This document shows positions 31,004-56,049 of a DNA stretch of 64,000 nucleotides, one piece after another. The DNA is from Gammaproteobacteria bacterium (GTDB taxonomy: Bacteria; Pseudomonadota; Gammaproteobacteria; Ga0077554; Ga007554). The notes beneath the pieces were generated by a model, which ran no database searches, had not been told where the DNA came from, and worked only from the letters and a program-made list of their open reading frames with translations. Within the stretch, counting starts at the first letter, position 1. Every line of letters starts with the position of its first letter. Both the position numbers and the translations under genes were made by a program. The stretch covers positions 4,131 through 68,130 of the forward strand of contig JACPOZ010000021.1 in the NCBI GenBank assembly GCA_016191235.1, written 5' to 3'.

Positions 31004-31177
31004 ATCTTTTATTCTCCGCCGAAAAGGAAATTTATCGCTTCTATCTGACCATTTCTCCTTTTGAACCACGCTACTTCCCTAAGGCTTGGGTGAGCATAGC
31101 AAAGCGAAAACCAGCCGGTCAATCGAATACGCAGAGGCTAAGCTGCGCAAATCAGATACTAGAGCCTCCCATCAGAC

Positions 31178-37032: not shown

Positions 37033-39765
37033 CTAATTTTGAACTGGCAACAAAGAGTGGGGCTTTTTTTGCGCCTGTCCCAGGCCAAGATCATAAATGT
37101 CACGATCCAGGGGGCTGAGTGCCTTGAGACGGGCGCGATAAAACGACGCCATCTTACCATCGCCGGCATCCCTCTCCATGCGCCATAAGGCCCGCAAGGC
37201 CTCGACATGGTCTGGACGCACCTGCAAAATAGCCTGCAAGGCCTGCCGTTTGTTCATGCCGCGATCCAGCGCCTGTGGCAATGTCGCCAGCATCTTGTCG
37301 GCCAGGTCAAAACCAATCCAGCGATCACGGGGATTGGCCTCAAAGGCGAGGCGCATCAGACGCTGCGCCTCGCCCGTATTATCACCACGCAGCGCAGCCA
37401 CCCAGCTTCTCGCCGCCAAAAAAGAGGCCACATAGCTGCGCTCGAATTCCTGCGCATTATTGGCCGGCACATTCATGGCGAGCGCTGCCTGCGCCAAGCC
37501 TGGCCGCTGCTCCAGCAGCTTGGACAATAATACATCGAGATTAAATGCATCGCGGTAACGTGCGCGCGGCAAACGGTATTCGATCTGCGGCGCCCATTCA
37601 TCCTGCACCGGACCCACGCCTGGCGGAATCGGTCCCCAGTAGCGGCCCAACCATGTCCATGCACCCTCCCCGCCCGTCGCGGCGGATTGCCCGGCTTGCG
37701 CAAGACGGCCCAAATTTGCCAGCAATGCGGGCGCGCCCTGCACAACGTCCTTCGGACCTACCAATGCGACGCGGAAACCATCCATAAAAATTACCGCACC
37801 GGGGAAAACCTTCCGAAAGCTGCGGAAAATTATACCCAATGATCCGGCATCGAATTGATTCAGGGCCAGCCACTGCACAAACAACCCATTTTCCGTCAAC
37901 CTGTCACGGGCGCGCTGAAATTGCTGCACTGACAACAAGGCACTATGCCCCACCAGATCGGGATGAAACAAATCGCCAATAATGACATCGTAATGCCCCG
38001 TATCCCGGCGCAAAAAGCGTCGCGCGTCATCTCGCGTCACAGCCAGCTTGCCCATCACATCCTGATTCACCGGCGCAAACCACTGCGCCGCTGCCGTAAT
38101 AGCCCCCTGCGAAAGCTCCACTGCCTTGCGCGACAATTGCGGGTACGGCAGCGATCCCGCCGCAGATATCCCCGTACCCAAGCCAAGAAACAGCACCGAG
38201 TGCGGCGCGGGGTGCAGCATCAGTGGCAAACGGGCCTGATTTTGCTGCGCCTCGACAGCAGCGGGATCGGAAGATGCGTCCATGCGCTGCAAATCGGCCA
38301 GCAACAAACGCTGACCGTCGACCCGTTCCACAACGTGGGTAATTGAGATGGCATCTTCATGCACATAAATATCCTGACTACCCGCCTGGGTCACAGGCAG
38401 CAGCACATTCACTGCGGGCAGCTCATACACCCTGCCCACCCCCGCCAGACCCATTACACCGAGCATAGTCAGCCAGGGCCAGCGGCTATCCGCCCACACC
38501 ATGCCGCACGCGAATAACAAAACTGCCGCCAGACACAAAGTACCCATGGTTCCCAGCCAGGGTATGAGCACAAATCCCGCCAGCACTGCACCCAACGCCG
38601 CACCCAACGAATTGACGCCATACAGCCACGATCCAGTGCTATGCTGATCTCCCAGTCGGCTATTGAGCAACGGCAACCACGCACCGAGCGCCAGCGTCAC
38701 CGGCAAGGTCAGCGCGGCCACAGCCAGCCCCTGCCACCACAATGCGCCCGCGAGGGATGAAAAATGCGCCTTTTCGACCCACGCCGCCAACTGCGGTACC
38801 AGCCCCAGGCCCAGCAGGCTAAAACTGCCCGCCAGCAACGGCAACACAGCAAACCAGCGCGCGCCGCGCATGTGCCGCGCCGCCAAGCTGCCCAGACCAA
38901 TACCCACCAGGAACACTGCCAGCAGCACTGCCAGCACATATTCGGTACGCAACAGGATCATGCCGAACAGGCGCGTCCAACCCACCTGCAGCATCAATGC
39001 CGCCGCACCCACGCCGGCATAGGCGGCGAGCGATACGAATGATAACCGCGCAGCGCCTTCCCTTGGGCTTTCCTTCGCAGCCGCAGCGTTCGCCAGCGGC
39101 GTAAAGGACAACAAAAACGCCGCCATGCCCACGCACAACCCAATCCCGGCAACCACCCGCACAGCGCTCGACCATCCCAGCCATGGCAACAGCAGCAAGG
39201 GCAATAACGCCCCCGCCGCGCCACCCACGGCATTGAAGCCATAGATCTTGCCTAATGAGACACTGGGTGATGCGGCTCCGCCTGCAAGCACCCTAAGCAC
39301 CAAAGGGAATCCCGCCCCCATTGCCAGCGCGGGGACAAACAACAATACCAATGCGGCCAGGGATTGCAACGCATACCATACCGTAAGCTCCGCCTGCGCG
39401 GCATACGCACCCAGCCAGCCATCCAGCACCTGCTGCATCCATGGCATACACAGGGCATAGAGAGCGACCCCAACCTCCAGCGCGGCAAAAGCCACCAGCG
39501 GCGCCCGCGCGTTGCGCGCAAACCTTACTCCCAGCAAACTGCCCAGGCCAAGGCCAGCCATGAAGGTGGCGACCGTCACCACCACACCGAAAATGCTGAC
39601 CCCGAATTGCAGGCCCAACATGCGTGCCCACAAAACCTCATAGGCGAGGCTGGTCAGGCCGGAGATAAAATACAGCAGGATCAGTACCCAGACCCAACGG
39701 TGGGGGGCATTGCCTTGCGGAGAGGAATCGCTCAAGTCAGATTTGAGCGCCTGATCAACTTGCAT
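37033..39765 (-). CDS. fused polytopic membrane (MFS-like) / spermidine-synthase-like / TPR protein
   Basis: 910 aa. About 14 N-terminal TM helices, a central SAM-fold aminopropyltransferase-like segment (VLFLGLGTGISAAGSL...YDVIIGDLFHPDL) and a C-terminal TPR-like region. Confidence 0.78.
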   Translation of the reverse strand: MQVDQALKSDLSDSSPQGNAPHRWVWVLILLYFISGLTSLAYEVLWARMLGLQFGVSIFGVVVTVATFMAGLGLGSLLGVRFARNARAPLVAFAALEVGVALYALCMPWMQQVLDGWLGAYAAQAELTVWYALQSLAALVLLFVPALAMGAGFPLVLRVLAGGAASPSVSLGKIYGFNAVGGAAGALLPLLLLPWLGWSSAVRVVAGIGLCVGMAAFLLSFTPLANAAAAKESPREGAARLSFVSLAAYAGVGAAALMLQVGWTRLFGMILLRTEYVLAVLLAVFLVGIGLGSLAARHMRGARWFAVLPLLAGSFSLLGLGLVPQLAAWVEKAHFSSLAGALWWQGLAVAALTLPVTLALGAWLPLLNSRLGDQHSTGSWLYGVNSLGAALGAVLAGFVLIPWLGTMGTLCLAAVLLFACGMVWADSRWPWLTMLGVMGLAGVGRVYELPAVNVLLPVTQAGSQDIYVHEDAISITHVVERVDGQRLLLADLQRMDASSDPAAVEAQQNQARLPLMLHPAPHSVLFLGLGTGISAAGSLPYPQLSRKAVELSQGAITAAAQWFAPVNQDVMGKLAVTRDDARRFLRRDTGHYDVIIGDLFHPDLVGHSALLSVQQFQRARDRLTENGLFVQWLALNQFDAGSLGIIFRSFRKVFPGAVIFMDGFRVALVGPKDVVQGAPALLANLGRLAQAGQSAATGGEGAWTWLGRYWGPIPPGVGPVQDEWAPQIEYRLPRARYRDAFNLDVLLSKLLEQRPGLAQAALAMNVPANNAQEFERSYVASFLAARSWVAALRGDNTGEAQRLMRLAFEANPRDRWIGFDLADKMLATLPQALDRGMNKRQALQAILQVRPDHVEALRALWRMERDAGDGKMASFYRARLKALSPLDRDIYDLGLGQAQKKPHSLLPVQN

Positions 39766-39795
39766 GAGGTGTTTTTAAGTTAGGCAAAAAGATCG

Positions 39796-40170
39796 TCAGA
39801 AAGGAAAGAACCAGACAATGGCAGTGACCGCATGGGCAATCGCCAGAAAAACGCTGAATCCCGCAAATATCATATGCGCAACAAAAACCTGCTTGCCATA
39901 CACAGCCATCGCGATACCGAGCGCGGCAGCGCCAATAATACCAATCAGCAACAAGATGCCCATGATAAATAAAATCTGGTGCTTCTTTTTATCGGAAATC
40001 AACACATCCTTGCCGACAGTCTGCTCCTTGTTGACAAAGGATTGCATCACCTCCTGACTCTCATTTGCCCTGACCGGCGGCGACGCCATTGCACCCATAA
40101 AAATCGCCACAAGGAATAACACCAGCCAGCTTTTCCTGGCACCCACCATGCGGCAACTTGCTGCTGTCAT
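39796..40170 (-). CDS. small membrane protein (hypothetical)
   Basis: 124 aa with a signal/anchor helix and two C-terminal TM helices. GGAG SD 8 nt before the ATG at 40170. Ends 30 nt upstream of the 910-aa gene. Confidence 0.55.
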   Translation of the reverse strand: MTAASCRMVGARKSWLVLFLVAIFMGAMASPPVRANESQEVMQSFVNKEQTVGKDVLISDKKKHQILFIMGILLLIGIIGAAALGIAMAVYGKQVFVAHMIFAGFSVFLAIAHAVTAIVWFFPF

Positions 40171-40192
40171 GCTTCCAACTCCGACACATATT

Positions 40193-40212
40193 AAAAAGCC
40201 CCGAACGGGGCT
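40193..40212 (-). terminator. rho-independent terminator-like hairpin
   Basis: On the minus strand: agcccc-gttc-ggggct followed by ttttt. It lies only 23 nt upstream of the ATG at 40170. Confidence 0.55.
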
Positions 40213-40258
40213 TTGATCAACAATAATTCATCCTGCAACAAAAAACCTGCGCCTCCTG

Positions 40259-40498
40259 CTACGCCTCTTCCGGCTCCTTGGTTACCTCGGCCCCCTCTGC
40301 GCGTTTGCGCATGGCAAAATACCAATAAAGGATCGCTATAATAATGATGGGACCCAATACCATGGGCAACAAAAACAAAAAAATTAGCCAAGGCGTATCA
40401 ATCGTAACATGCAAATAGCGGTAGCTATCCAGCGCCAAGGCGGAATCCGATAGCAACAACAGCGGAAAAAAACCAAACAAACCAATATATTTTTTCAT
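40259..40498 (-). CDS. small exported/membrane protein (hypothetical)
   Basis: ORF trimmed to the ATG at 40498 (MKKYIGLFGFFPLLLL...), preceded by AGAGGTGG. One further TM helix and a charged tail. Confidence 0.5.
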   Translation of the reverse strand: MKKYIGLFGFFPLLLLSDSALALDSYRYLHVTIDTPWLIFLFLLPMVLGPIIIIAILYWYFAMRKRAEGAEVTKEPEEA

Positions 40499-40513
40499 AA
40501 TTACCACCTCTGA

Positions 40514-41578
40514 TCAGGATGGGTCAGCATCTTTGGCGCAGCGAAATCCAAAGAAATCGGATGCGGCGTAAGGCCAAGAGAAATTCCGGTGATAGGTCGA
40601 GGTGGAAAATGGATCGCTCTTCCAGGAACCACCGCGCAGAACCTTGTAGCGCTTTTCTGTAGGCACCAGATCCACAATTTTCAGCGACCTGTCCGCCGCC
40701 GAATTTATCTGGGCAATTTTGGCCTTAAAAACATCCTCCGGCGCATCACTGCCCGCATACGGGAGCAGGTCATTTTCAACCCACTGGCTGACATTGCCTG
40801 CCATGCCAAGCACCCCATAAGGACTTGCCCCTGAAGGATAAGCTGTTACAGGCGTGGTTGAGCCTACTGAATAATAGGTGTTCAATCGCGTAGGGTCCAT
40901 TTTATCCCCCCATGGCCAGCGCCGCCCATCCACGCCGCGCGCCGCTTTCTCCCACTCCGCCTCGGTGGGCAGGCGCTTCCCCGCCCATTTTGCGTAACTC
41001 ACTGCATCAAACCACGACACCATCGTCACAGGATGCAACTCGGCACCCTCGGGAATTCTGCCCTTACGCCAATTCAGGGGCGGTCGATGGCCCGCCGCTA
41101 CAAAGCGCGCATATTGGGCGTTGGTTACCGGATATTTATCAATCAGATACGGCCTTAGCACGACGCGATGCTGTGGACGGTTTTGCACATCGTCGCGCTC
41201 CCGATCCGTACCCATCACAAATTCACCTGCGGGGATCAAAATAGTCGAATCCACTTCACGCCATTGCTCAGGCGTCAACAGTGCCTCCACCTCGGCTGGC
41301 GTATAAGCTACCGCCACAGCCCCTTCGCTTGCCCTACGCTTGTTAAGCGTTATATCCTCGCCCGCTGCCCGGATTTTACTATGCATTTCTTTGAGGTCAT
41401 AAGAGGCTTTACTGCGCATATCCGCCATGCGGTTGGAACCGAGCTTCACCACATGCAAGGTTGCAAAGATCATGGTCAAGGCAACACATGAGACCAAGGT
41501 TGCCGCAATATACCGCTTGCGTATGGCAATCTGCCCTGGGGTCGCAACTCGGGCACTACGAATCTCGCCCGACCTCAC
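40514..41578 (-). CDS. membrane-anchored formylglycine-generating-enzyme (FGE-sulfatase/SUMF1/NirV) family protein
   Basis: 354 aa with an N-terminal TM anchor. Motifs: GEFVMGTD, HRVVLRPYLIDKYPVTNAQYARFV, HPVTMVSWFDAVSYAKWAGKRLPTEAEWEKAARG, RVLRGGSW and FGFRCAKD. Start overlaps the upstream stop (ATGA type). Confidence 0.85.
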   Translation of the reverse strand: MRSGEIRSARVATPGQIAIRKRYIAATLVSCVALTMIFATLHVVKLGSNRMADMRSKASYDLKEMHSKIRAAGEDITLNKRRASEGAVAVAYTPAEVEALLTPEQWREVDSTILIPAGEFVMGTDRERDDVQNRPQHRVVLRPYLIDKYPVTNAQYARFVAAGHRPPLNWRKGRIPEGAELHPVTMVSWFDAVSYAKWAGKRLPTEAEWEKAARGVDGRRWPWGDKMDPTRLNTYYSVGSTTPVTAYPSGASPYGVLGMAGNVSQWVENDLLPYAGSDAPEDVFKAKIAQINSAADRSLKIVDLVPTEKRYKVLRGGSWKSDPFSTSTYHRNFSWPYAASDFFGFRCAKDADPS

Positions 41579-42096
41579 TTTTCTACTCCAGACGATACAC
41601 TGTCGGCACCCGGCAGACTCTCGGGAGCTAATTCGCTGCCTGCCTTTTTGTAGAGCCTATGCCGCAAATGGCTGGGAGTACGCCCATAGGTCTTTTTCAC
41701 AACAATTTCACCCACCAGGCCACCTACCCCCGCGAGTTCCATGGCAATCAAAACAACCAGCAGCCAGTATACCAATGGAAGCAGTCTAACGCCCTCCGGT
41801 ATCGCGGTATAGCCGTAGAAGACATCCAGATACTTATACCCCTGCACAATAAAAGGCACAAAAAATGCCAACAGCTTACCCCCAAATCCGTAAATCAACG
41901 CGACGGGGAGTCCGGCAACAAACGGCACCAAAAAGAGCGACATAGCCCAATCATAAGTGAAATAATCAATCCCGGAAAACAAGTGCAGTTGCACGCCTGT
42001 CCAACGGTCACCAATAACATTGATGATAACACCCACCGTTATGGCAATGGTCGCCATCAGAACATCAAGGAGCCTGCTTTTAATTTTTCCGTTCAT
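41575..42096 (-). CDS. polytopic membrane protein (hypothetical)
   Basis: 173 aa, about 5 TM helices. Has 4-nt overlaps with both neighbouring genes. Confidence 0.6.
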   Translation of the reverse strand: MNGKIKSRLLDVLMATIAITVGVIINVIGDRWTGVQLHLFSGIDYFTYDWAMSLFLVPFVAGLPVALIYGFGGKLLAFFVPFIVQGYKYLDVFYGYTAIPEGVRLLPLVYWLLVVLIAMELAGVGGLVGEIVVKKTYGRTPSHLRHRLYKKAGSELAPESLPGADSVSSGVEK

Positions 42097-42602
42097 TGGG
42101 GCGTTTTACCTGCTGCAAGATAAGGCTTGCCTGTCAGCTTCTCAAACTCTGCCTTTTTAGTCTCTTCCAGATACCAATCCTGCACCTTCAGGCTAGCCAT
42201 ATACGAAGCAAGGACTTTGCGCTCTTCCTCGGAAAGATGTGCATAGGAAGGCATTTTATACATTTTTTTCAATCGCGTAGGAAGAATCGCCTGGGGGTTC
42301 TCGGCAGAAAAATACGCATAAAACCACTGCTCGTCACGCAATGAGCCAATACCATCCAATGCCGGAGCAGGCACATTAGCGCTCATATCCCGCACACTCC
42401 ACAGTGAGTGACAGTTTTTACATTCAAGCCGTCGATAAAGATCGGAACCCGCAACCTCCAGCTGGGAGGACGCCGCTGAATAAAAGGGGATACCACGATC
42501 CACCTCTTTTTTTTCAGTGTTCAATTGCCATATTTTGTGGCCCACCAGCACCACAGACAAAACCGCAATAACGGCAAGAATGCCCTTCTCGCCTTTACGC
42601 AT
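42093..42602 (-). CDS. membrane-anchored monoheme c-type cytochrome (short FixO/CcoO-like)
   Basis: 169 aa with an N-terminal TM helix and a single CKNCH heme motif. The downstream PAPALDGIGSLRDEQWFYAYFSAENPQAILPTRLKKMYKMPSY resembles the CcoO signature. Confidence 0.72.
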   Translation of the reverse strand: MRKGEKGILAVIAVLSVVLVGHKIWQLNTEKKEVDRGIPFYSAASSQLEVAGSDLYRRLECKNCHSLWSVRDMSANVPAPALDGIGSLRDEQWFYAYFSAENPQAILPTRLKKMYKMPSYAHLSEEERKVLASYMASLKVQDWYLEETKKAEFEKLTGKPYLAAGKTPQ

Positions 42603-42610
42603 TTAAATTC

Positions 42611-42871
42611 CTACTTATCTTTCTTCGCCAGGTTCTCTTCCCGGCGCTGTATCTGATGTTTCATCACTTCCTGGCTTTTTGAAAATTCCTCGGGTGACAT
42701 CTTGTTTTTATCCTTCTCGTCAAAGACAACGTATTTAATGTCCTCGTCAAACTGCTCGTTCTTGGCCGCCCACCACATAAAATAACCCGCCGCGATCAAA
42801 ATAAATGCTGCGGCGACAAGCCAAACATATATGGTCCAACCATCGGGTAAAGATTGCAGGTATTCAGTCAT
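42611..42871 (-). CDS. CcoS/FixS-like small membrane protein
   Basis: 86 aa. One TM helix followed by WWAAKNEQFDEDIKYVVFDEKD, which matches the W-x3-(S/N)-(G/E)-Q-(F/Y)-(D/E)-D pattern of cbb3 maturation protein CcoS. AGGAGA SD. Confidence 0.55.
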   Translation of the reverse strand: MTEYLQSLPDGWTIYVWLVAAAFILIAAGYFMWWAAKNEQFDEDIKYVVFDEKDKNKMSPEEFSKSQEVMKHQIQRREENLAKKDK

Positions 42872-42880
42872 GTCTTTCTC

Positions 42881-43228
42881 CTAGAAGAGGTAACCTTCGA
42901 TCATTTGCGTCCAGCCAAAAGTCACACCAATAATAATGCCCATAATGAGGGCGCCGAACATCACCTTTTCCCCGGTTTTCAACACTCGCTTGCTTTTTTT
43001 CATGTAGATATAAATCATGAAGGCGAACAATATAACCTGCATTATCAAAAAAACGAAAATGGCGATACTGTAACGGTGGCTATTCAGCCCTTCAATGGTC
43101 AGATCAAGACCAAACAGGCTGCTGGGGCCTTCTTGCACCTTTGCCAGCGCCGCTCCAGAATATTCCCCGAACCGGGTATTTGCAAGAAGAGTTGATAAGA
43201 ACGACCGAAACTCATTCCACATATTCAT
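42881..43228 (-). CDS. small membrane protein (hypothetical)
   Basis: 115 aa with two predicted TM helices. First gene after a 400-bp non-coding gap; weak SD. Confidence 0.45.
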   Translation of the reverse strand: MNMWNEFRSFLSTLLANTRFGEYSGAALAKVQEGPSSLFGLDLTIEGLNSHRYSIAIFVFLIMQVILFAFMIYIYMKKSKRVLKTGEKVMFGALIMGIIIGVTFGWTQMIEGYLF

Positions 43229-43436
43229 AATTACCTAATACACCGTATCACCGCATGATGAGAAAGAGTGCTGCACTATGCGCCCGTCTCGCCATTCAAT
43301 CGTACGATAAGCACGATAAATCCAACACTTTTATAGACAGAAAATAGCAGCAATCGTTCGTTTTGAGAGTCGCACAACTTTTGCTAGTATAGTGCATCGT
43401 TCTTCACGGTATTTATGCGCAAACCATTGTAGTTCT

Positions 43437-43475
43437 GGCTTTAGCCCAACATGTCGGGTTAAAACCCGACCTACC
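43437..43475. repeat. REP-like hairpin
   Basis: ggctttagcccaacatgtcgggttaaaacccgacctacc (stem gtcgggtt/aacccgac). I recall it resembling a widespread proteobacterial repeat family (not checked). Confidence 0.4.
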
Positions 43476-43546
43476 ATGCGTTGCTGGCTGTGCCCATAAG
43501 TTCCAGATAGCTTGCAACACCATACTAGCCACTAGAAGTGCAGGGC

Positions 43547-43584
43547 AATAAAAAAGATGCCGCCCTTCATCAGAGCGGCATCTT
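43547..43584 (-). terminator. rho-independent terminator ending the oxidase operon
   Basis: 10-bp stem aagatgccgc / gcggcatctt with an 11-nt loop, followed on the minus strand by ttttatt. Confidence 0.7.
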
Positions 43585-43629
43585 AGCAGGATATTACCTT
43601 ACCTACCCAGCGGGTAGGCAGACATCAAA

Positions 43630-43782
43630 CTACTTGAATGCCTCAGCATCCTTCGCCATTTGCTTGTCTTCCTTATGCTCACGCCAGTATTTATCCACGA
43701 TTGTGCTGTACAGGAATGGCGCGGTAAACACAAAGGCGATGATTGCCGCCGCCACCATAGTAAGGTTGTCGATATCGATCAT
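43630..43782 (-). CDS. 50-aa single-TM micro-protein (CcoQ-like by size and topology only)
   Basis: Not in the ORF track. AAGGAGG lies 8 nt before the ATG at 43782. Sequence is MIDIDNLTMVAAAIIAFVFTAPFLYSTIVDKYWREHKEDKQMAKDAEAFK. It starts 25 nt after the preceding stop and is followed by a terminator. Confidence 0.55.
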   Translation of the reverse strand: MIDIDNLTMVAAAIIAFVFTAPFLYSTIVDKYWREHKEDKQMAKDAEAFK

Positions 43783-43807
43783 GCTTTAGTCCTCCTTAAA
43801 AATTAAA

Positions 43808-44440
43808 TCAAGTAGTGACGGGCTTCTTGGAGAAGTGTGGCAAGCGCTTGATCATGATGAACATCCACAAGCAGTAGTAGCTCACGTAGAACACGTCAAT
43901 AGTGTATCCCTTGTCCCACCAAGGCTGCTTGCGCTCCCTCACGCCATCCGCACGGAAATTGCCCTCGAAGTTGGCCAAAACAACCTTGTCACCCAACACC
44001 GTGAAGTTGTCAAGAGGATATTTGGTCTGCTTCTGTAGTTCAATGATGTGCGGAGCCAGATTCTGCAAGTCGTACCAGTCGATGGGATGACGTTCAAGCT
44101 GACCTTTCAATGCGTTATCCGGCGCCCTGTTGTATGCCTCGGTGTTGATGTATTTCATCTTCTCCTCGGCGGTGGCAAGCTTCTGCACCTCCGGAGAATT
44201 CATCAACTCCACGTGGGTTTGATAAATTGCAGCCGTCGGCCTTTGCCCCCATATTGGCATGGTAAGCATGAATGCAGTGAGAATGATCAGTGCAATCAGG
44301 AACGTCAGCGGGAAGGGGAGGCGATTATTCGCCGGGTGTATCAACCCACCCATTCTTTCCTCGCCCCACATCTTTAATATTTGCTGCTGTTCTTGCTCAT
44401 CAGAAAGCGAGTACAGCGGGTTATCCATTTTCCAGGCCAT
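43808..44440 (-). CDS. two-TM membrane protein occupying the CcoP position (no heme motif)
   Basis: 210 aa. AAGAGGGG SD, 26 nt after the CcoO-like stop. TM helices LPFPLTFLIALIILTAFMLTMPIW and IDVFYVSYYCLWMFIMI. No CxxCH. Confidence 0.6.
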   Translation of the reverse strand: MAWKMDNPLYSLSDEQEQQQILKMWGEERMGGLIHPANNRLPFPLTFLIALIILTAFMLTMPIWGQRPTAAIYQTHVELMNSPEVQKLATAEEKMKYINTEAYNRAPDNALKGQLERHPIDWYDLQNLAPHIIELQKQTKYPLDNFTVLGDKVVLANFEGNFRADGVRERKQPWWDKGYTIDVFYVSYYCLWMFIMIKRLPHFSKKPVTT

Positions 44441-44466
44441 AATATACCCCTCTTATATATGATTGA

Positions 44467-45441
44467 TTACTTCAGACTCAGAACCCAGTCAATCAAGGCA
44501 CGGATTTCGCTATCGGGCGCGTAATCGGGTACCTCTGGCGGATAGGTTCTCTTGCCTTCGGAGTACTCCTTATATTCGGCGCGCCACTTATCAAAGTCGA
44601 TAGTGTTTCCCTGCGCGTCTTTATCACCCCACAGGTAGTCAAAACGCGGCATGATGGAGTTGACCTGCACCAATCTGGGATTGAAGAAGTGCATCATCAT
44701 CCACTCGCGAGAGGAGTTTCTGGAAGCGACGTGGAGAATATCCGGCGCTTTGCGGTCGGAACCGAATGCGGTCGGATTTTCACCATTGAAGTCGCCCAGG
44801 TAGGGAGGGGCACCAAAAGCCTGCCAATCCTGGGTCTGCTCAGGCAGGAGGGTATGGCACCACCAGCATCCCTGCACGACAAACTCCGTCTTGCCTTTGG
44901 AAATGAGATGGGTATTCTTATCTCCGGCAGCAGCAAGGGTAGCATCAGGCGTCCAACCCTTGGTCACCGAGGCATTTTCGATGTAGGTCAGCTCTTCACC
45001 ATTAAACTCACCGAGCGCCAGCGTGAAGACCACACCTTCCTGACTCCCTTTGCTATGATTCGAGCCGCTGACAGTACTAATTTGCCCTTGGCTTTCGCTC
45101 AGGTCCTGGACGCCCTTACCCAGATCGTGGGGGTGCCGGATATTCGGCGGCATCGGAACACCCGCCTTGTACACATACGCCCTCACCGGCGGATCCAGCT
45201 TTGCGCCGGTTTTAGGGTCCGTCTCCAGATCGACAGTGATAGGTCTGTTGATACCCAGCAATAGCGGATCAGCATAACCAAACCCTATGTCGAACCCTGC
45301 CGACAACTGCTTCTCCAGGGCCATCTTGGTTGACACCGCAGACCTCAAGTCAAAGCTAGGCATGAAGATTGTGATAGTCATCGAGAGTCCTAACGCACCC
45401 CCGACCATTGCGGCACCTAATCTATACTCTTTAAAAGCCAT
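44467..45441 (-). CDS. enlarged CcoO/FixO-like monoheme cytochrome c subunit
   Basis: ORF trimmed to the ATG at 45441 (GGGAGGG SD). One TM anchor and a single CWWCH. CcoO signature ...FGSDRKAPDILHVASRNSSREWMMMHFFNPRLVQVNSIMPRFDYLW. Roughly 125-140 extra residues lie between the anchor and the heme motif. Confidence 0.8.
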   Translation of the reverse strand: MAFKEYRLGAAMVGGALGLSMTITIFMPSFDLRSAVSTKMALEKQLSAGFDIGFGYADPLLLGINRPITVDLETDPKTGAKLDPPVRAYVYKAGVPMPPNIRHPHDLGKGVQDLSESQGQISTVSGSNHSKGSQEGVVFTLALGEFNGEELTYIENASVTKGWTPDATLAAAGDKNTHLISKGKTEFVVQGCWWCHTLLPEQTQDWQAFGAPPYLGDFNGENPTAFGSDRKAPDILHVASRNSSREWMMMHFFNPRLVQVNSIMPRFDYLWGDKDAQGNTIDFDKWRAEYKEYSEGKRTYPPEVPDYAPDSEIRALIDWVLSLK

Positions 45442-45473
45442 TTTTATCCCTCCCAACTATTGGTTCACATTAT

Positions 45474-45502
45474 ATCCCCCGGCAACTAGGCGTCCGGGGG
45501 AT
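45474..45502 (-). promoter_or_regulatory. intercistronic stem-loop between the ccoN-like and ccoO-like genes
   Basis: atcccccgg-N11-ccgggggat, a 9-bp perfect stem within the 94-nt spacer. No T-run on the minus strand. Confidence 0.4.
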
Positions 45503-45535
45503 TTTAGGATCATGTAACGATATCAGATGCCTCTT

Positions 45536-46945
45536 TTAACGCTCGTATGCCAACTCGTGAGCATAACGGCCATCTGGAACCAACGTACCCACGCGGGCGG
45601 TCATCCACATGTTGTAGAGCCACACCAAATTGCCGGTAAACACCATGGTGCCACCAACCCAGCGTGCGATCATGTAGGGGTGCTCTGCAATCACGACGTC
45701 GATATAAGGCACCTCGTAGATCTTGCCAGCACCCTGGATCAGACCTGCGATTGTCATTGATATCCAGTAGGTACAGAAGCCGATCAGCACGAACCAGTAG
45801 TGGAAGTTGGCCAAGGCCAAGGAGTACAGCTTTCTCTTTAGCATCTGCTGCAGGCCAAAATAGACCGCCGCGATTTCCAGGAAGGTGGACATTCCCAGCA
45901 AAGCCAAGTGGGCATGTGCCACGATCCAGCCCGTGCCATGGATGAACCAGTTAATGGAGCGGGTCTGCTGGAATCCACCCTGCATGTTAAGGGGAATCGC
46001 CAGAAACACGCCAGTAACGGAGAATTTGATCTCGATGTTCTCCACGAACATGCTCCACTTACCTTTCATGGTCAACAAAATGTTGGCAACAAAGGCAACG
46101 GCGGGGATCAAAATCAACACACCTTCCACGGAGGCAAAGGACTTCAGCCACTCAGGCAATGGCGAGGACATCAAGTGGTGCGAGGCCGGGGTCGAATAAA
46201 ACACGACGATCGACCAGAAGTGCATATGGCCGATGCGATGCGAGTAGAGCGGGTTACCCGTCAGCTTGGGAATTGTATAGTACGCAATTGCTGCTGCGAC
46301 CGGGGTAATCCACAGGCCCAAAAGATTATGGGCATTCCACCAGGTCAGGTACGCTTCAGACAAGCCTGTGAGGTGGAAATACTCAGGGGAGTTACCGACT
46401 AACAGCACGATACCGACCATGAAGGTACAGGCGCCGAAGAACCAGTTGGTGATATAAATACCTTGAGTACGACGGTGAGCGATCGTCATGATGACGTTGA
46501 CGCACAACGGCGCGATAACACCAAGCAGTATCACCAGGTCAAACGGCCATGCAAAATCGGAATACTCACGGCCCGAGGTGATGCCGATCCAAAGGCTGAG
46601 CAGCGCCGAGGAAAGACCGACGTTCCATAAGAGCGCCGTCCAGAGACCCAACTTTTCCGACCACATCCGGGTATTACCCAAAGCAGGCGTCATATACATC
46701 ATGGTCATGGCAAATGCCATGGAAATCCAGCCGACGATCACTGCGAGAACATGCACCTGACGCATATGACCGAATGCGAACAGCTCCGTACCGGTTACAA
46801 AATCCGGGAACGCCAGCTTTGCGGCATTAAACGAACCCAAGCCCGTTCCGACCACAAACCAGAAAATAGCGGAAAATCCAAAGAATATCGCCGCTGATCC
46901 TGGCGGGATATCCTCATTCTTTGCGGACAAATATTTAAATAACAT
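45536..46945 (-). CDS. C-family (cbb3-type) heme-copper oxidase subunit I, CcoN-like
   Basis: 469 aa, about 12 TM helices. Motifs: FGHMRQVHVLAV (helix II His), GREYSDFAWPFDL, WWNAHNLLG (CuB His), FYSTPASHH (Y-x5-HH) and WIVAHAHLALLGM (HxH). GGAGGTGAGGGG SD. Confidence 0.9.
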   Translation of the reverse strand: MLFKYLSAKNEDIPPGSAAIFFGFSAIFWFVVGTGLGSFNAAKLAFPDFVTGTELFAFGHMRQVHVLAVIVGWISMAFAMTMMYMTPALGNTRMWSEKLGLWTALLWNVGLSSALLSLWIGITSGREYSDFAWPFDLVILLGVIAPLCVNVIMTIAHRRTQGIYITNWFFGACTFMVGIVLLVGNSPEYFHLTGLSEAYLTWWNAHNLLGLWITPVAAAIAYYTIPKLTGNPLYSHRIGHMHFWSIVVFYSTPASHHLMSSPLPEWLKSFASVEGVLILIPAVAFVANILLTMKGKWSMFVENIEIKFSVTGVFLAIPLNMQGGFQQTRSINWFIHGTGWIVAHAHLALLGMSTFLEIAAVYFGLQQMLKRKLYSLALANFHYWFVLIGFCTYWISMTIAGLIQGAGKIYEVPYIDVVIAEHPYMIARWVGGTMVFTGNLVWLYNMWMTARVGTLVPDGRYAHELAYER

Positions 46946-47002
46946 AACCCCTCACCTCCCAGGTAGTAACACTAACCTTTATTCTGCCCAAACAAACACA
47001 AG

Positions 47003-47095
47003 TTACTCTTTCATCATATTCAGAAGATACCAAGACATCCACATACTCGAGAACGCGAGCAAGATACCGCAACCACCAGCGAATGTCGCCAACAT
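47003..47095 (-). CDS. 30-aa hydrophobic micro-ORF upstream of the ccoN-like gene (hypothetical)
   Basis: Not in the ORF track. GGGGG lies 7 nt before the ATG at 47095. Sequence is MLATFAGGCGILLAFSSMWMSWYLLNMMKE. Confidence 0.35.
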   Translation of the reverse strand: MLATFAGGCGILLAFSSMWMSWYLLNMMKE

Positions 47096-47185
47096 AATGA
47101 AACCCCCTTTAATTAAAAACTGAAGAGACTAGCTACCAGCAAAGGAAATACCAGCAAGGAAACCCATGATTCCCCGCCCAACCTA

Positions 47186-47491
47186 TTAAAAATACGCTGG
47201 CTTTTCACCTTTGGCGACGGCCTCGGCCTCAAGCTTGCCGTGCCTGCTCATCGCCATCACCTGAATGATGAAGAACGCAACCCCGAAGGCGATCATCATA
47301 CAGTCGACAAACCCCGAAAAAGTCGCCGGATTGTATTGCTCTGCACCCCAGCCGCCCCAGCTTTCATAGGGGCCACGCCCTACGGCACACATCACTGCGG
47401 CGCCGAACACACTTCCATTACCCATGCCAGTGGTCACACCACCGATAAAAGCGGGAAAAAATATTTTCCCCAAAGTCAGCTTATTATTCAT
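47186..47491 (-). CDS. small membrane protein (hypothetical), first gene of the oxidase operon
   Basis: 101 aa. GGGAGGG SD 4 nt before the ATG at 47491. Two Gly-rich TM helices. Confidence 0.55.
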   Translation of the reverse strand: MNNKLTLGKIFFPAFIGGVTTGMGNGSVFGAAVMCAVGRGPYESWGGWGAEQYNPATFSGFVDCMMIAFGVAFFIIQVMAMSRHGKLEAEAVAKGEKPAYF

Positions 47492-47859
47492 CTATCCCTC
47501 CCATATGGTTGCTGCTGCTTATGCACTTACTCGTTAACTGTGCAAACCCGGAATGACACATGGCGAATGTCATTCGCCATCTATTACCACTAATAAAAAC
47601 AAATTGCAAGGTGGCGTCAAGCTAATCCCTTATAAACTGCATCCCATATCTGATCGTGCCATATGGCTGCATCCGACGTCAAGACGTGTTTTGCATTTAT
47701 GTTCGCATGCCATTCACGGCCTCATTAGGCAGCCATTGCACGGGGGCATGCAGCAGGCGTTCTGCACACCTCATCCATCTACGCAATTCCTCGTATTTCC
47801 AGGCAATAAGCACTTATGGCGCCGAGGAGGTCAAGGCGTGGACGCATAAAATATCCGGA

Positions 47860-48627
47860 TTAAAAATCATACTCTATGATCAGCGGGGCATGGTCGGAGA
47901 AGCGCTGATCTTTGTAAATAGATGCTTCTTTGACTTTATCTTTCAGGCCCGGTGTAATCACTTGATAGTCGATGCGCCATCCCACGTTTTTGGCCCACGC
48001 CTGGCCACGGTTGGACCACCAAGTATATTGATCCGCCTCCTGGTTGATGACGCGAAAGGCATCCACAAATCCCAGTGGACCGAATAACTCGTCCATCCAG
48101 GCACGCTCTTCCGGCAGAAAACCGGAGTTTTTCTGGTTGCCACGCCAGTTTTTGAGGTCAATCTGTTTATGGGCGATGTTCCAGTCGCCACAGATGATGT
48201 ATTCGCGCCGGTCTTCCTGGAATTGCCTGAGAACGGGCCTGATGCGTTCCATAAGGTCAAATTTCACCGCTTGGCGCTGCTCGCCACTGCTGCCTGAGGG
48301 CATGTATAGGGAGATGACGCTGAGACTGCCGAAATCAGCCTGGATAAAACGCCCCTCTGCATCGATATCCTGCCAGCCCAGCCCCATCACCACGCGATCC
48401 GGCTTCTTTTTGCAATACAGCGCCACGCCGCTGTAACCTTTCTTTTCGGCATCATGAAAATAGGCGTGATAGCCGGACGGGTGGTAGGTTTCGGGGGGAA
48501 GCTGATGCTCCTGCGCCTTGGTTTCTTGCAGGCACACGACATCGGCGTCCTGCTTTAGCATCCACTCAAAAAATCCTTTGCTGGCAGCAGAGCGGATGCC
48601 GTTGGCGTTGAGTGCGATTATTTTCAT
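47860..48627 (-). CDS. xthA: exodeoxyribonuclease III
   Basis: 255 aa with MKIIALNANGIRSA start, CLQETK, and C-terminal SDHAPL. Confidence 0.93.
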   Translation of the reverse strand: MKIIALNANGIRSAASKGFFEWMLKQDADVVCLQETKAQEHQLPPETYHPSGYHAYFHDAEKKGYSGVALYCKKKPDRVVMGLGWQDIDAEGRFIQADFGSLSVISLYMPSGSSGEQRQAVKFDLMERIRPVLRQFQEDRREYIICGDWNIAHKQIDLKNWRGNQKNSGFLPEERAWMDELFGPLGFVDAFRVINQEADQYTWWSNRGQAWAKNVGWRIDYQVITPGLKDKVKEASIYKDQRFSDHAPLIIEYDF

Positions 48628-48689
48628 GTGTTTTCCATTGTGCGGCGAGGCCGGTACAATAGCCGAAATTTAATCACGGGCAAACCTCC

Positions 48690-49343
48690 ATGCAAAATTA
48701 TCAGCGCGAATTCCTTGATTTTGTGATTACTACAGGTGTGCTGCGTTTTGGGGAATTCACTCTGAAATCCGGGCGCGTCAGCCCCTACTTTTTTAACAGC
48801 GGCCTGTTCAATACCGGCGGCAGCATCGCGCGATTGGGGCGCTACTATGCTGCCGCGCTGGAAAATGCGGGCATAAGCTATGACATGCTGTTCGGCCCGG
48901 CCTATAAGGGTATACCGCTGGCGGTGGCTACATCGATTGCGCTCGCCGACCATCACCGGCGCGATATCCCGTATGCCTTCAACCGCAAGGAGGCCAAGGA
49001 CCATGGCGAGGGTGGTACAACGGTGGGGGCGAAGCTGGCGGGCCAGGTTATGATTATCGACGATGTGATCTCGGCGGGTACCTCGGTGCGCGAATCGATT
49101 GTAATCATCAAAGCGGCGGGGGCGGTTCCGGCGGGTGTTGCCATTGCGCTGGACAGGCAAGAGCGTGGCGCGGGCGCGTTATCTGCGATCCAGGAAGTAG
49201 AAGGGGCGCATGGGATCAAGGTAGCAAGCATTGTCAATCTGGACAATTTGATTGAATACCTGTCTATGCAACCGGCAATGTCGGATGCGCTGGAGAACAT
49301 CCGCGCCTATCAGGCGCGGTATGGGGTACGCGGTTGCGCGTAG
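48690..49343 (+). CDS. pyrE: orotate phosphoribosyltransferase
   Basis: 217 aa with the PRPP-binding motif [13 protein letters not shown]. Confidence 0.95.
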
Positions 49344-49350
49344 CGAACCC

Positions 49351-52777
<3,427 letters not shown>

Positions 52778-52828
52778 CAGGGATTATTAGCGTTGAGAGT
52801 TTTCATGCTTTACTATTCAAGGTAATGG

Positions 52829-53284
52829 CTAATGACGCCCCGAGTGACCAAATCCGCCCTCGCCGCGCGCACTCTCCGCAAAGTCATCGACGATCTCGAA
52901 GGCGGCCTGCACTACCGGCACGAACACCATTTGCGCGATACGCTCCCCCGGCTCGATGCGGAAGGACAGGCTGCCACGGTTCCAGCACGAGACAAACACC
53001 TGGCCCTGGTAGTCCGAGTCAATCAGCCCCACCAGGTTGCCCAGCACTATGCCGTGCTTGTGGCCCAAGCCGGAGCGCGGCAACAGCACTGCGGCCAATG
53101 ATGGATCATCGATATGGATCGCCAGCCCGGCCGGGATCAAATGGCTTTCGCCGGGATGTATCTCCAGCACGCTATCCAGACAGGCGCGAAGATCCATGCC
53201 CGCTGCGCCGTGTGTGGCGTAATGCGGCAAAGGAAATTCGTTGCCGATGCGCGGATCGAGAATTTTAAGTTTTATCTTGTGCAT
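52829..53284 (-). CDS. dut: dUTP diphosphatase
   Basis: 151 aa with [14 protein letters not shown] start and GLIDSDYQG motif. Confidence 0.95.
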
Positions 53285-54512
53285 GATATCTCTCAGATAT
53301 TACGGAAATCAGATCACGGGCCAGCTTGTCCTTGGCCGCATATGGCAATTCCATGCTGCCGCCCTGCCGATCTACAGGGACATTCGAATCCTGGGATGCC
53401 GGGAGCGGCCAAAACAGCGTCAGCGCATTTTCATTACTATCAAAACCCATGCCCTGCCCTACCCAGTTGGCAGCAACCATATCTAGCGTCTTGGCGGCGA
53501 GCTTGGCGCGGGCATGCGCCTCCAGATTCTCGGTCTCAGCGGCGAAGCCCACGGTAAACGGCGCATTGGGCAGTGCTGCGACGCTGGCAAGAATATCAGG
53601 AGTACGTTCCAGCGCCAGGCTCACCTCAGTCTGCGCCTTTTTAATCTTGTGCTGCGCCAACTGTTGCGGGCGATAATCGGCCACCGCCGCCGCGCCGATA
53701 AAGATATCGCAATCGCGCATATTCGCCAGCACCGCCTCATACATCTGCTCGGCGCTTTCCACATCAATGCGCACTACACGCGGCGGTGCGGGCAGCGCCA
53801 CCGGGCCGCTGACCAGGGTTACGTTGGCACCCGCCTCTGCTGCGGCAGCAGCGATGGCATAGCCCATCTTTCCCGAGCTGCGATTGCTGATGAAGCGCAC
53901 CGGATCAATCGCCTCGCGCGTCGGCCCGGCGCTCACCACTACATTGAGACCGTTCAAGCTCCCGGCGGCGAACAGCCCTGCCGTCATTTCCACCAATTGC
54001 TGCGACTCCACCATCCGCCCCTCGCCTACCTCGCCGCACGCCTGCTCGCCAGCAGCGGGACCGAACAGTCGCACACCGCGGCGCTCAAGAAGTCGGCGGT
54101 TGTCCTGCGTCGCCGGATTAGACCACATCAGCCGGTTCATCGCGGGCGCAAGCGCGAGCGGCGCGTCACAGGCCAGACACAACGTACTGAGCAGGTCATC
54201 GGCCAGCCCATGAGCCAGCTTCGCCATGAAATTCGCGCTTGCCGGTGCCACCAGCACCGCATCCGCCCAACGTGCCAGCTCGATGTGGCCCATAGCCGCT
54301 TCGGCCTGCGGATCAAGCAAATGCAGATGTACCGGGTTACCGGACAGCGCCTGCATGGTGAGCGGCGTGATGAACTCCGTCGCGGCGCGCGTCATCACCA
54401 CCCGCACTTCGGCCCCGGCATCGCGCAGGCGGCGCGTCAGATCAGCGCTCTTATAGGCCGCGATACCGCCCGTAACGCCAAGAAGGATGCGTTTATTTTC
54501 CAGTTGCTTCAT
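53265..54512 (-). CDS. coaBC: bifunctional phosphopantothenoylcysteine decarboxylase/synthetase
   Basis: 415 aa with [13 protein letters not shown] flavoprotein N-terminus and the CoaB half [10 protein letters not shown]. Confidence 0.95.
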
Positions 54513-54599
54513 GCCGGATGGTCGACTCGGTAGAACATGGTTCAGATTTTAACCTAAATTCCGATACTGTTTGTGACATTCATATTCGAAAGAACGCGC

Positions 54600-55277
54600 A
54601 TGCCCATCACCGACTGGCCTGAACACGAACGTCCCCGCGAAAAGCTGCTGCTGCGCGGCCCCGGTGCATTGTCCGACGCCGAACTGCTGGCGATTTTTTT
54701 GCGCACTGGCGTACCCGGCAAAAGCGCCGTCGATCTGGCACGCGATCTGTTGAATGAATACGGTGGGCTGCGCACCCTGCTGGAGGCCGATCAAAAACAG
54801 TTTTGCCGAGGCCACGGGTTAGGGCAGGCGAAATATGTCCAGCTTCAGGCCGTGCTGGAGATGGGCCGCCGCCACCTGCGCGAGACGCTGGAGCGCGGCG
54901 ACGCCCTGAGTAATCCCAACGACACCCGTCGCTTCCTCACGGCGCGCCTGCGCGGCTATCCGCACGAGGTGTTCGCCTGCCTGTTTCTCGACAACCGCCA
55001 CCGGGTAATACGCTTCGACGAGATGTTCACCGGCACTATCGACGGCGCCAGCGTCCATCCGCGCGAGGTGGTCAAACGCGCGCTGGCGCATAACGCGGCG
55101 GCGGTGATCTTCGCCCACAACCACCCCTCCGGCATCGCCGAACCCAGCCGCGCCGACGAAACGCTGACGCGTCGCCTGAAAGACGCCCTGGCACTGGTCG
55201 ACATCCGTGTTCTCGATCATCTGATTATCGGTGATGGCGAAGATGTGGTATCCTTTGCGGAACGTGGGTTGCTTTAA
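54600..55277 (+). CDS. radC: RadC-family (JAB/MPN) protein
   Basis: ORF trimmed to the ATG at 54600 ([17 protein letters not shown]). HNHPSG JAMM motif present. Confidence 0.88.
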
Positions 55278-55390
55278 AACCTCAAGTGGGATCGGTTTTT
55301 TCTTGCGTATCGCGCCGGAATTTGTTATAAATTATAGTTTCGCCCGGCCTAATGGCCGACAGCACCGAATTCGTCGTTTGGAGATTTAGC

Positions 55391-55627
55391 ATGTCCAGAG
55401 TATGTCAAGTCACGGGCAAGCGCCCAATAACCGGAAACAATGTTTCCCACGCCAATAACAGAACACGACGCCGTTTTCTGCCGAATCTGCACGTCCATCG
55501 CTTTTGGGTAGAGAGCCAGAAGCGCTGGGTGCGCCTGCGCCTTTCCACGCAGGGGATGCGCATGATTGACAAGGTTGGCATAGACGCCGTGCTGGCCGAA
55601 ATGCGCAGCCGCGGCGAAAAGGCATAA
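55391..55627 (+). CDS. rpmB: 50S ribosomal protein L28
   Basis: [33 protein letters not shown]; 78 aa. Confidence 0.95.
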
Positions 55628-55639
55628 GGGGAATAAATC

Positions 55640-55795
55640 ATGCGTGAAAAAATCAAGCTCATATCCAGCGCCGGCACCGGCCACTTCTACACCACCATGA
55701 AGAACAAGCGCAACACCCCCGACAAACTCGAAATGAAGAAGTTTGATCCCGTGGTGCGCAAGCACGTTGCCTACAAAGAAGCCAAGATCAAGTAA
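55640..55795 (+). CDS. rpmG: 50S ribosomal protein L33
   Basis: Not in the ORF track (51 aa). Sequence is [51 protein letters not shown]. It starts 12 nt after rpmB. Confidence 0.92.
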
Positions 55796-55817
55796 TCCTG
55801 GCACTTTTAGCCTAATT

Positions 55818-55859
55818 GGCGTGACTTCCGGGCTCCCCGGAGTCACGCCACTAATTTTT
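55818..55859 (+). terminator. rho-independent terminator after rpmG
   Basis: ggcgtgacttccggg / ccccggagtcacgcc stem followed by actaattttt. Confidence 0.7.
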
Positions 55860-55965
55860 CATACCTGCAAAATCTCACCCCGCTTAAAATCCCTGAATTT
55901 CATAAAGCACATGCGACCTTGCTTGGCTCATAGTTTTACTGCATTTCTAAATCAATAGTGGAACC

Positions 55966-55983
55966 GGGTGCGTCCCACGCACC
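55966..55983. repeat. REP-like hairpin, second copy of the 18-mer
   Basis: gggtgcgtcccacgcacc, identical to the first 18 nt (5579-5596) of the hairpin at 5579-5597. Confidence 0.45.
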
Positions 55984-56049
55984 AACAAGTTATTGGCGTT
56001 TTGAATCAGCCTGCCGCGATCAAAATTCAATCGCGGATTTGACATAACC

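Follow-up and report, generated by a model that had tools for sequence, protein, structure and literature searches.

A probable CcoP-less cbb3-type oxygen reductase cluster with four conserved small membrane proteins in Gamma-, Beta-, and Zetaproteobacteria

Results

A six-gene cbb3-type oxidase unit without CcoP

The stretch of DNA analyzed here (the window) is a 64,000-nucleotide part of contig JACPOZ010000021.1 from the Gammaproteobacteria bacterium assembly GCA_016191235.1. Its minus strand carries, from position 47491 down to 43630, six genes that probably form a single transcription unit for a variant, lacking CcoP, of the high-affinity cbb3-type (C-family) oxygen reductases, the form termed 'distal cbb3' in the literature on iron oxidizers. 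In order of transcription they encode proteins of 101 and 30 amino acids (aa), the catalytic subunit CcoN, the cytochrome c subunit CcoO, and proteins of 210 and 50 aa; a hairpin terminator closes the unit. The four small proteins are called g101, g30, g210, and g50 below. A preliminary description of the window had proposed an oxidase module with a novel subunit complement. This stands insofar as the enzyme is a divergent cbb3 oxidase with no CcoP and with real partners that belong to no recognized family, but the module is not peculiar to one genome and is shared by a clade spanning Gamma-, Beta-, and Zetaproteobacteria. All six open reading frames (ORFs) lie at the positions first given for them, with one correction: the likeliest start codon of ccoO is the ATG at position 45441, downstream of a GGGAGGG sequence, and not the TTG at 45456. 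The resulting 324-aa product is identical to that of an existing database record (Table 1).

The catalytic subunit

The 469-aa CcoN aligns over its full length (residues 22-452) with CcoN of Pseudomonas stutzeri (PDB chain 3mk7_A, phmmer E value of 7.7e-62). The ligand motifs that had been read in it, FGHMRQVH, WWNAHN, FYSTPASHH, and HAH, are all present and align with H60, H207, Y251/H257/H258, and H345/H347 of the P. stutzeri protein, the full set of equivalences being H65, E127, H206, Y250, H256/H257, and H344/H346 in the window protein to H60, E122, H207, Y251, H257/H258, and H345/H347. By this alignment, CcoN has every residue for low-spin heme b and for the heme b3-CuB center: the six His ligands (two for heme b, one for heme b3, and three for CuB), the helix-VII Tyr that is cross-linked in solved cbb3 structures, and the Ca-site Glu are all kept, and the His ligands and Y250 are invariant in 22 family members. 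A family profile built from 22 members and searched against PDB chains matched five solved cbb3 CcoN chains with E values of 2e-69 to 5e-52, in line with the earlier assignment to a divergent C-family oxidase; the next-best match was NorB (E value of 5e-6), and no A- or B-family subunit chain in the PDB was matched at E<=10. Against the canonical equivalog TIGR00780 (NCBIfam) CcoN scored 227.3 bits and did not reach the cut-off of 583.15. Judged from these alignments, CcoN is a C-family enzyme with a predicted intact oxygen-reducing center that lies outside the canonical equivalog. A canonical ccoN motif was not found in the window or in any of the related loci retrieved.

Divergence from the solved enzymes includes residues that are constant in the clade. 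An invariant, clade-specific AIPLNMQGGFQQ stands where all five solved CcoN chains have FYGMSTFEGPMM, so that Y317 of P. stutzeri is replaced by Ala (residue 316 of the window protein) and E323 by Gln (residue 322); both replacements are invariant in the clade, and the NMQGGF motif was present in 156 of 156 sources examined. In addition, S240 and I241 of P. stutzeri, likewise common to the five solved chains, are invariantly Gly and His in the clade (residues 239-240 of the window protein, LSIVHFW becoming IGHLHFW). In the P. stutzeri structure, Y317 reportedly lines a proton channel and E323 is said to form a hydrogen bond with the proximal His of heme b3, although a literature search did not confirm this. 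The Y317A and E323Q replacements suggest a retuned heme b3 environment or proton path.

The cytochrome c subunit

The gene after ccoN had been called a ccoO homolog, and profile searches bear this out. Pfam FixO matched residues 182-279 only, above its cut-off (E value of 3e-13, 50.2 bits against a gathering threshold of 29.6), and CcoO chains in the PDB were matched with E values of 2e-9 to 6e-8, with CWWCH and the Met-bearing SIMPRF aligning; the score against TIGR00781 was 45.8 and did not reach the cut-off of 200.65. CcoO has one transmembrane (TM) anchor, at residues 8-26, and one heme c site, the single CWWCH. Between anchor and heme domain lies an insertion of about 140 residues, which AlphaFold2 models as a confident alpha/beta domain (predicted local distance difference test score, pLDDT, of 85-96). 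A Foldseek search of the CcoO model against the PDB returned no fold match at E<=1e-3.

Four small partner proteins

As the preliminary description had it, diheme CcoP is absent and the slot after ccoO is held by a 210-aa protein with no CxxCH: no ORF with two CxxCH motifs occurs in 37033-47491, where the only cytochrome other than CcoO is a downstream protein with one heme (g169). Likewise, g210, g101, and both micro-ORF products are unrecognized by Pfam, NCBIfam, and the PDB. No match to CcoQ/FixQ was found for g50 or g30 in Pfam or NCBIfam, nor for 27 members of the g50 family scanned singly in Pfam; these members gave only chance-level Pfam matches, and g50 was rejected as a CcoQ/FixQ. It is possible that the small-helix proteins are structural analogs of CcoQ. 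In both NCBI and JGI, g101 is a 'hypothetical protein'. The gene for g30 is apparently missing from the GenBank annotation of this metagenome-assembled genome (MAG), since the accessions running from MBI2778958 (g210) to MBI2778961 (g101) leave slots only for ccoO and ccoN. Third codon positions carry most of the pairwise divergence in every gene of the unit, the 30- and 50-aa ORFs included (0.34/0.19/0.53 by codon position for g30, a coding-like pattern, and 0.46/0.34/0.65 for g50), which indicates that both are real genes.

The largest of the four, g210, has 1378 homologs; every one bears the name 'hypothetical', and no Pfam domain occurs in any of them. A sequence search of the PDB gave no match at E<=5. 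The AlphaFold2 model (mean pLDDT of 73.6, about 90 over residues 70-160) found no match in the PDB with Foldseek at E<=1e-3, and a g210 profile searched against 1.84e9 representative proteins returned 35 matches only, mostly fragments. We considered whether g210 could be a remnant of CcoP and rejected this, there being no cytochrome c fusion and no distant relative among the 1.84e9 representatives; g210 represents a narrow orphan family rather than a degenerate CcoP. A short, Lys/Arg-rich tail follows the second hydrophobic helix and points to an N-in/C-in arrangement in which the middle domain would be periplasmic.

Conservation and distribution of the unit

We ran tblastn with all products against 155 loci drawn from one-genome-per-species collections. 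Almost all loci of sufficient length contained the six genes, with their order unchanged. Collinearity of the six genes was seen in L001-L080, in L081-L155, and also in a Ferrovaceae locus (L169) and a Nitrotoga locus (L163). The neighborhood comparison proposed in the preliminary description thus shows the extra ORFs to be strongly conserved and syntenic with ccoN-like genes, and the 210-aa protein belongs to no known subunit family. Purifying selection acts on the four small proteins, which are conserved and keep their gene order.

Carriers fall into three groups: uncultured Gammaproteobacteria (Chromatiales, Ectothiorhodospiraceae, Thiotrichales, and Ca. Tenderia), Betaproteobacteria (Gallionella, Sideroxydans, Nitrotoga, and Ferrovaceae), and Zetaproteobacteria, including the isolates Mariprofundus ferrooxydans PV-1, M. 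erugo P3, and EBB-1. The CcoN of the window is 99% identical to that of two Gammaproteobacteria MAGs from groundwater or sand filters, and identities of 72-81% were found in the orthologous clusters of a Sideroxydans MAG (L074), Gallionella MAGs (L068, L079), Nitrotoga (L055, L163), Mariprofundus PV-1, P3, and EBB-1 (L089, L088, and L132, respectively), and Ferrovaceae (L169). In a few Zetaproteobacteria loci (L115, L122, and L123) the six-gene unit is alone at its site, from which we conclude that the conserved block is modular.

In the most divergent locus with a g210 homolog, the oxidase cluster is immediately preceded by an operon for alternative complex III (L156:1-3899), with genes for a molybdopterin-like ActB, an NrfD-type ActC, and ActD; the COX1 gene of that locus is called in fragments. 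Just upstream of the cluster in M. erugo P3 (L088:3592-8395) are a nirK-like two-domain multicopper oxidase, two c-type cytochromes, and a thioredoxin-like protein; in the same stretch a FixO-like cytochrome adjoins a 170-aa fragment that matches only the C-terminal part of COX1. The Sideroxydans MAG encodes, upstream on the opposite strand (L074:2317-3862), a 267-aa, probably diheme cytochrome c, in which two stretches gave cytochrome c matches, and a 193-aa cytochrome c.

Ribosome-binding sites, terminator, and upstream region

The Shine-Dalgarno strings quoted earlier for the six genes were found in the window, and they are unusually strong by duplex energy with the anti-Shine-Dalgarno sequence, at -8.8 to -12.1 kcal/mol (-10.7 for g101, -11.4 for g30, and -12.1 for g50). 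Each falls within the strongest 0-2% of the values for 42 other ORFs of the window (median -2.85 kcal/mol), a rough comparison because the start codons of the background set were picked mechanically. Over about 100-145 loci, the median energies were -8.7 to -11.3 kcal/mol for all six genes, and the sites of the four small proteins were indistinguishable from those of CcoN and CcoO. The genes downstream of the unit had medians of -1.5 to -4.8 kcal/mol in six of seven cases, the exception being the CcoS-like g86 with -8.2 kcal/mol.

A terminator had been predicted at the end of the operon, and the sequence there forms a 13-bp stem (43584-43554) followed by a T run. In 73 of 79 loci the gap between g50 and the next gene, g115, contains an equivalent hairpin with a T run, the stem sequence differing among loci, and so the six-gene transcription unit is itself conserved.

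Upstream of the first gene, at a distance of about 70-85 nucleotides, lies a perfect palindrome, GGCGAATGaCATTCGCC (47562-47578), a possible operator; another inverted repeat, AATGACA...TGTCATT, overlaps it. No FNR/ANR box was found upstream of g101 in the window. One-mismatch FNR-type boxes (TTGAT-N4-ATCAA) occurred in 10 of 138 orthologous upstream regions of 300 nucleotides, against 1.8 expected from shuffled sequences (loci L068, L072, L073, L100, L106, L110, L111, L119, L009, and L031). With this count, and with none in the window, an FNR/ANR box was rejected as a general feature of the cluster.

Conserved genes downstream

Synteny runs seven genes past the terminator, a continuation that the preliminary description had missed and that was seen in almost all related loci. 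In the second unit (g115, g86, g169, g173, and FGE354) the genes are closely spaced, either overlapping or only a few bases apart. About 260 nucleotides farther on lies a third unit (g124 and spm910), and the block ends at 37033, with rpsF (ribosomal protein S6) next. The CcoS-like g86 came just short of the Pfam FixS cut-off (22.8 bits against 23.1, E value of 7.6e-5) and matched TIGR00847 (ccoS) with an E value of 0.029. For g169, matches were obtained to Pfam Cytochrom_C (E value of 1.3e-7) and FixO (E value of 1.1e-6, residues 44-75) and to ccoO-type NCBIfam models (residues 9-77), and its JGI name is 'cbb3-type cytochrome oxidase cytochrome c subunit'. FGE354 scored under every NCBIfam equivalog cut-off. 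The last gene product, spm910, matched the NCBIfam 'fused MFS/spermidine synthase' model (E value of 3e-25) and was collinear wherever the locus was long enough.

Table 1. Features of the oxidase cluster and of the conserved genes downstream, in order of transcription (coordinates are those of the window)
Feature	Coordinates	Strand	Description
g101	47186..47491	-	101-aa membrane protein, first operon gene; invariant TGMGNGSVFGAA...GRG...WGGWG; no Pfam/NCBIfam family; collinear homolog in 146 loci
g30	47003..47095	-	30-aa single-helix micro-protein; consensus ...GILLAFSSMWFSWYLL...; same-position homolog in 126 loci
CcoN	45536..46945	-	CcoN-like subunit I, 469 aa, C-family heme-copper oxidase; Pfam COX1 9e-74; alignment to 3mk7_A
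CcoO	44467..45441	-	CcoO-like monoheme subunit II, 324 aa; N-terminal TM helix, ~140-aa insertion (residues ~40-180), heme c domain (CWWCH; Met in SIMPRF)
g210	43808..44440	-	210-aa orphan membrane protein; TM ~43-63, mainly helical domain ~65-178, second hydrophobic helix ~180-199; no CxxCH; collinear in 138 loci
g50	43630..43782	-	50-aa single-helix micro-protein; N-terminal MIDxDNPP, conserved P..YS..VD; homolog in 99 loci
Terminator	43544..43584	-	Intrinsic terminator-like hairpin and T run, 13-bp stem; ends six-gene unit
g115	42881..43228	-	115 aa, two TM helices; first gene of second unit; no credible family (Pfam, NCBIfam)
g86	42611..42871	-	CcoS/FixS-like, 86 aa; TM helix then conserved ...KNEQFDEDIKY...; collinear in 122 loci
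g169	42093..42602	-	169-aa membrane-anchored monoheme c-type cytochrome (CKNCH); N-terminus CcoO-like; collinear in 133 loci
g173	41575..42096	-	173-aa polytopic membrane protein; conserved IYG.GGK...FPP, E..A.GG..GE; start overlaps g169 stop; no family (Pfam, NCBIfam)
FGE354	40514..41578	-	TM-anchored FGE-sulfatase-fold protein; Pfam FGE-sulfatase 2e-55; start overlaps g173 stop; collinear in 113 loci
g124	39796..40170	-	124-aa small membrane protein, conserved His; KH..., ...HM..AG, ...AHA...VWF.PF
spm910	37033..39765	-	910-aa fused polytopic-membrane and spermidine-synthase-like protein; last gene of block; Pfam Spermine_synth 1.2e-5

Elsewhere in the window, a 575-aa ORF on the minus strand (29342-31069) contains YVSNYDDGTVSII-type repeats, and its C-terminus (...GGGGAFEPLALLALMGLWWRRSK) looks, when read by eye, like a PEP-CTERM-type sorting signal.

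Discussion

Relation to known oxidases

Like canonical CcoNOQP and CcoNOP(M) enzymes (P. stutzeri 3MK7/5DJQ and Rhodobacter capsulatus 6XKW), the enzyme encoded in the window would combine a full-length CcoN, with its heme and CuB ligands, cross-link Tyr, and Ca-site Glu, with a CcoO that has a TM anchor, a CxxCH, and a Met ligand, and with small single-helix partners. The window locus differs from them in having no diheme CcoP, no recognizable CcoQ/FixQ, and four orphan membrane partners instead, in the CcoO insertion with no PDB fold match, and in the exchange of FYGMSTFEG for AIPLNMQGG in a CcoN that scores 227 bits against the cut-off of 583.

Papers on iron oxidizers distinguish 'proximal' from 'distal' cbb3, a naming that goes back to Ducluzeau et al. 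2008 (PMC8788666, PMC7029218, PMC10734462). The proximal and distal clusters of Sideroxydans lithotrophicus ES-1 differ in subunit composition, and the distal ccoN and ccoO genes reach about the 99th percentile of expression (PMC8788666). Zetaproteobacteria and Gallionellaceae have one or both forms (PMC7029218, PMC10734462), and ccoNO is described, in a passage citing Ducluzeau et al. 2008, as the only part common to all cbb3 clusters (PMC5520029). Clusters of the window type occur in the same taxa (a Sideroxydans MAG, Gallionella MAGs, Mariprofundus PV-1, and Nitrotoga) and have a subunit set other than the proximal one. The oxidase type and the lack of CcoP are therefore already known, and the four partners match no described protein family; where the cited papers treat ccoN and ccoO, they do not discuss the four small partners, the CcoO insertion, or the seven downstream genes.

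A proposed six-subunit enzyme

In the reading that we consider probable, electrons would enter the enzyme from a periplasmic or membrane-anchored c-type cytochrome that reduces the heme c of CcoO, and would pass from there to heme b and on to the heme b3-CuB center, where O2 would be reduced to water. The 101-, 30-, 210-, and 50-aa proteins would be made in amounts like those of CcoN and CcoO, as stoichiometric subunits, and would take the membrane positions held in canonical enzymes by the helices of CcoP, CcoQ, and CcoM. On topology reasoning only, the heme-free domain of g210 and the ~140-aa domain of CcoO may sit on the periplasmic face in place of the heme domains of CcoP. The two downstream units could provide maturation and electron delivery, through the CcoS-like protein, the monoheme cytochrome g169, the FGE-fold protein, and others. 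The fullest form of this proposal, which we hold tentatively, is a distinct class of six-subunit cbb3 oxidase made of CcoN, CcoO, and four undescribed membrane subunits, in which g210 and the CcoO domain stand in for CcoP at the periplasmic face and may offer a dock for cytochromes of iron and sulfur oxidation, in which Y317A and E323Q retune the heme b3 site or proton path, and which may serve as the main terminal oxidase of neutrophilic iron oxidizers.

Could the missing redox subunit instead be g169, as a true third subunit and CcoP analog? Such a role would be compatible with the six-subunit proposal. The cluster of Ferrovum sp. JA12 (FERRO_02510-02610) contains only subunits I and II, and its co-localized c-type cytochrome, FERRO_02510, was proposed to replace subunit III (PMC4725956). 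That cytochrome lies six genes past ccoN, the position expected for g169, and a Ferrovaceae MAG has the identical 13-gene order, although Ferrovum JA12 is an acidophilic betaproteobacterium and the paper treats the intervening genes as unremarkable (PMC4725956). The gene for g169 is collinear in 133 loci, and the TM anchor and heme motif of the protein resemble the N-terminus of CcoO, in keeping with its JGI name. However, it belongs to a separate transcription unit past the conserved terminator, has a weak Shine-Dalgarno sequence (median -2.5 kcal/mol), does not adjoin the six-gene unit in some loci of Zetaproteobacteria, and would bring one heme rather than two. On balance we regard a subunit role for g169 as doubtful.

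Another hypothesis is that g101, g30, g210, and g50 are assembly or stability factors that act transiently on a two-subunit CcoNO. Canonical cbb3 oxidases require the dedicated assembly proteins CcoGHIS, a dependence that fits this hypothesis, and g210 has no cofactor motif. CcoH has been reported to remain with the complex (PMC4742706), and the proteome of PV-1 was reported to include CcoN and CcoO alone from the cluster (PMC5520029). On the other hand, the Shine-Dalgarno sequences of the small proteins match those of CcoN and CcoO in strength across genomes whereas most of those downstream are weak, the four genes lie inside the structural operon, ahead of the conserved terminator, and they remain with ccoNO where the downstream units are absent; single-helix subunits, moreover, are normal in cbb3 oxidases, CcoQ and CcoM being examples (PMC4742706). 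Signal strength and position inside the structural operon favor stoichiometric subunits for the four small proteins, and weak signals favor lower-abundance maturation or electron-delivery roles for most downstream genes. The fairly strong site of g86, a recognizable assembly-type gene, means that signal strength alone does not cleanly separate subunits from assembly factors. We consider transient assembly factors unlikely.

The preliminary description had also called the locus more AT-rich than its surroundings and had seen in this a sign of acquisition. The composition is as described: GC content is 0.51 in the operon (43630-47491), against 0.58 in the upstream flank (47800-56000) and 0.567 in the whole window. 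The conclusion drawn from it is weak, because low GC is largely a general property of the cluster genes across genomes. In a sample of 67 genomes with GC contents of 0.43 to 0.62, the cluster was below its flank in 51, by a mean of 2.2 points, and its GC followed that of the host from 0.43 to 0.59; the drop in the lineage of the window, about 6.5 points, is larger than this average. A CcoN identity of about 80% across Beta- and Gammaproteobacteria would fit some old lateral spread. A recently acquired island is nonetheless improbable, given that the low GC tracks the host, that the nearest relatives (93-99% CcoN identity) share the upstream neighbor xth, and that no mobile-element genes were seen adjoining the cluster.

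The nearest non-oxidase relative is the cytochrome c-dependent nitric oxide (NO) reductase (cNOR, NorCB, e.g., 4XYD), which shares the 12-helix fold of subunit I and a monoheme c subunit with one TM anchor but has no cross-link Tyr and has a Glu-ligated FeB, where the CcoN of the window has the invariant Tyr and, four residues past the first CuB His (H206), an invariant Gly (G210) at the position of the Glu. This Glu is said, from 2010 work by Hino and colleagues, to ligate FeB as a defining feature of cNOR. That the enzyme is mainly an NO reductase or another non-oxygen reductase is very improbable: the C family is the oxidase family closest to cNOR, with NorB the next-best PDB match, cbb3 enzymes show NO-reductase side activity (PMC8780969), two residues close to the active site differ from the canonical ones, and M. 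erugo has a nirK-like gene just upstream of its cluster, but neither the cross-link Tyr nor any of the three CuB His varies, Gly replaces the Glu of cNOR, the profile match to NorB is 63 orders of magnitude weaker than that to cbb3 chains, and the carriers are microaerophilic lithotrophs in which the cbb3 form is a very highly expressed oxidase (PMC8788666).

Several points weigh against the proposal of a six-subunit distal cbb3 oxidase. With Y317 and E323 replaced, O2 affinity and proton pumping like those of canonical enzymes cannot be assumed, and both CcoN and CcoO fall far under the NCBIfam equivalog cut-offs. Equating the cluster with the 'distal' form draws on shared taxa and on composition, including the missing ccoP, rather than on a place in the published CcoN tree, and counting the four small proteins as subunits draws on their synteny and Shine-Dalgarno strength. 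Their absence from the reported PV-1 proteome is weak evidence, as proteomics often misses small hydrophobic proteins. The weak Shine-Dalgarno sequence of g169 makes a fixed third-subunit role for that cytochrome doubtful.

Implications for respiration at oxic-anoxic interfaces

The high expression in Sideroxydans, together with the wide occurrence in Zetaproteobacteria, Gallionellaceae, Ferrovaceae, Nitrotoga, and many uncultured sulfur- or iron-oxidizing Gammaproteobacteria, suggests that the CcoP-less form probably carries much of the O2 respiration at oxic-anoxic interfaces. The structures and most of the mechanistic work on cbb3 oxidases concern canonical CcoNOP(Q), whose third redox subunit is missing here. 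CcoP contributes to the entrance of a proton channel, and the question of composition therefore bears on proton uptake as well. Establishing the true composition of the CcoP-less enzyme would reveal how a cbb3 oxidase can function with no CcoP and how electrons from extracellular iron oxidation reach O2.

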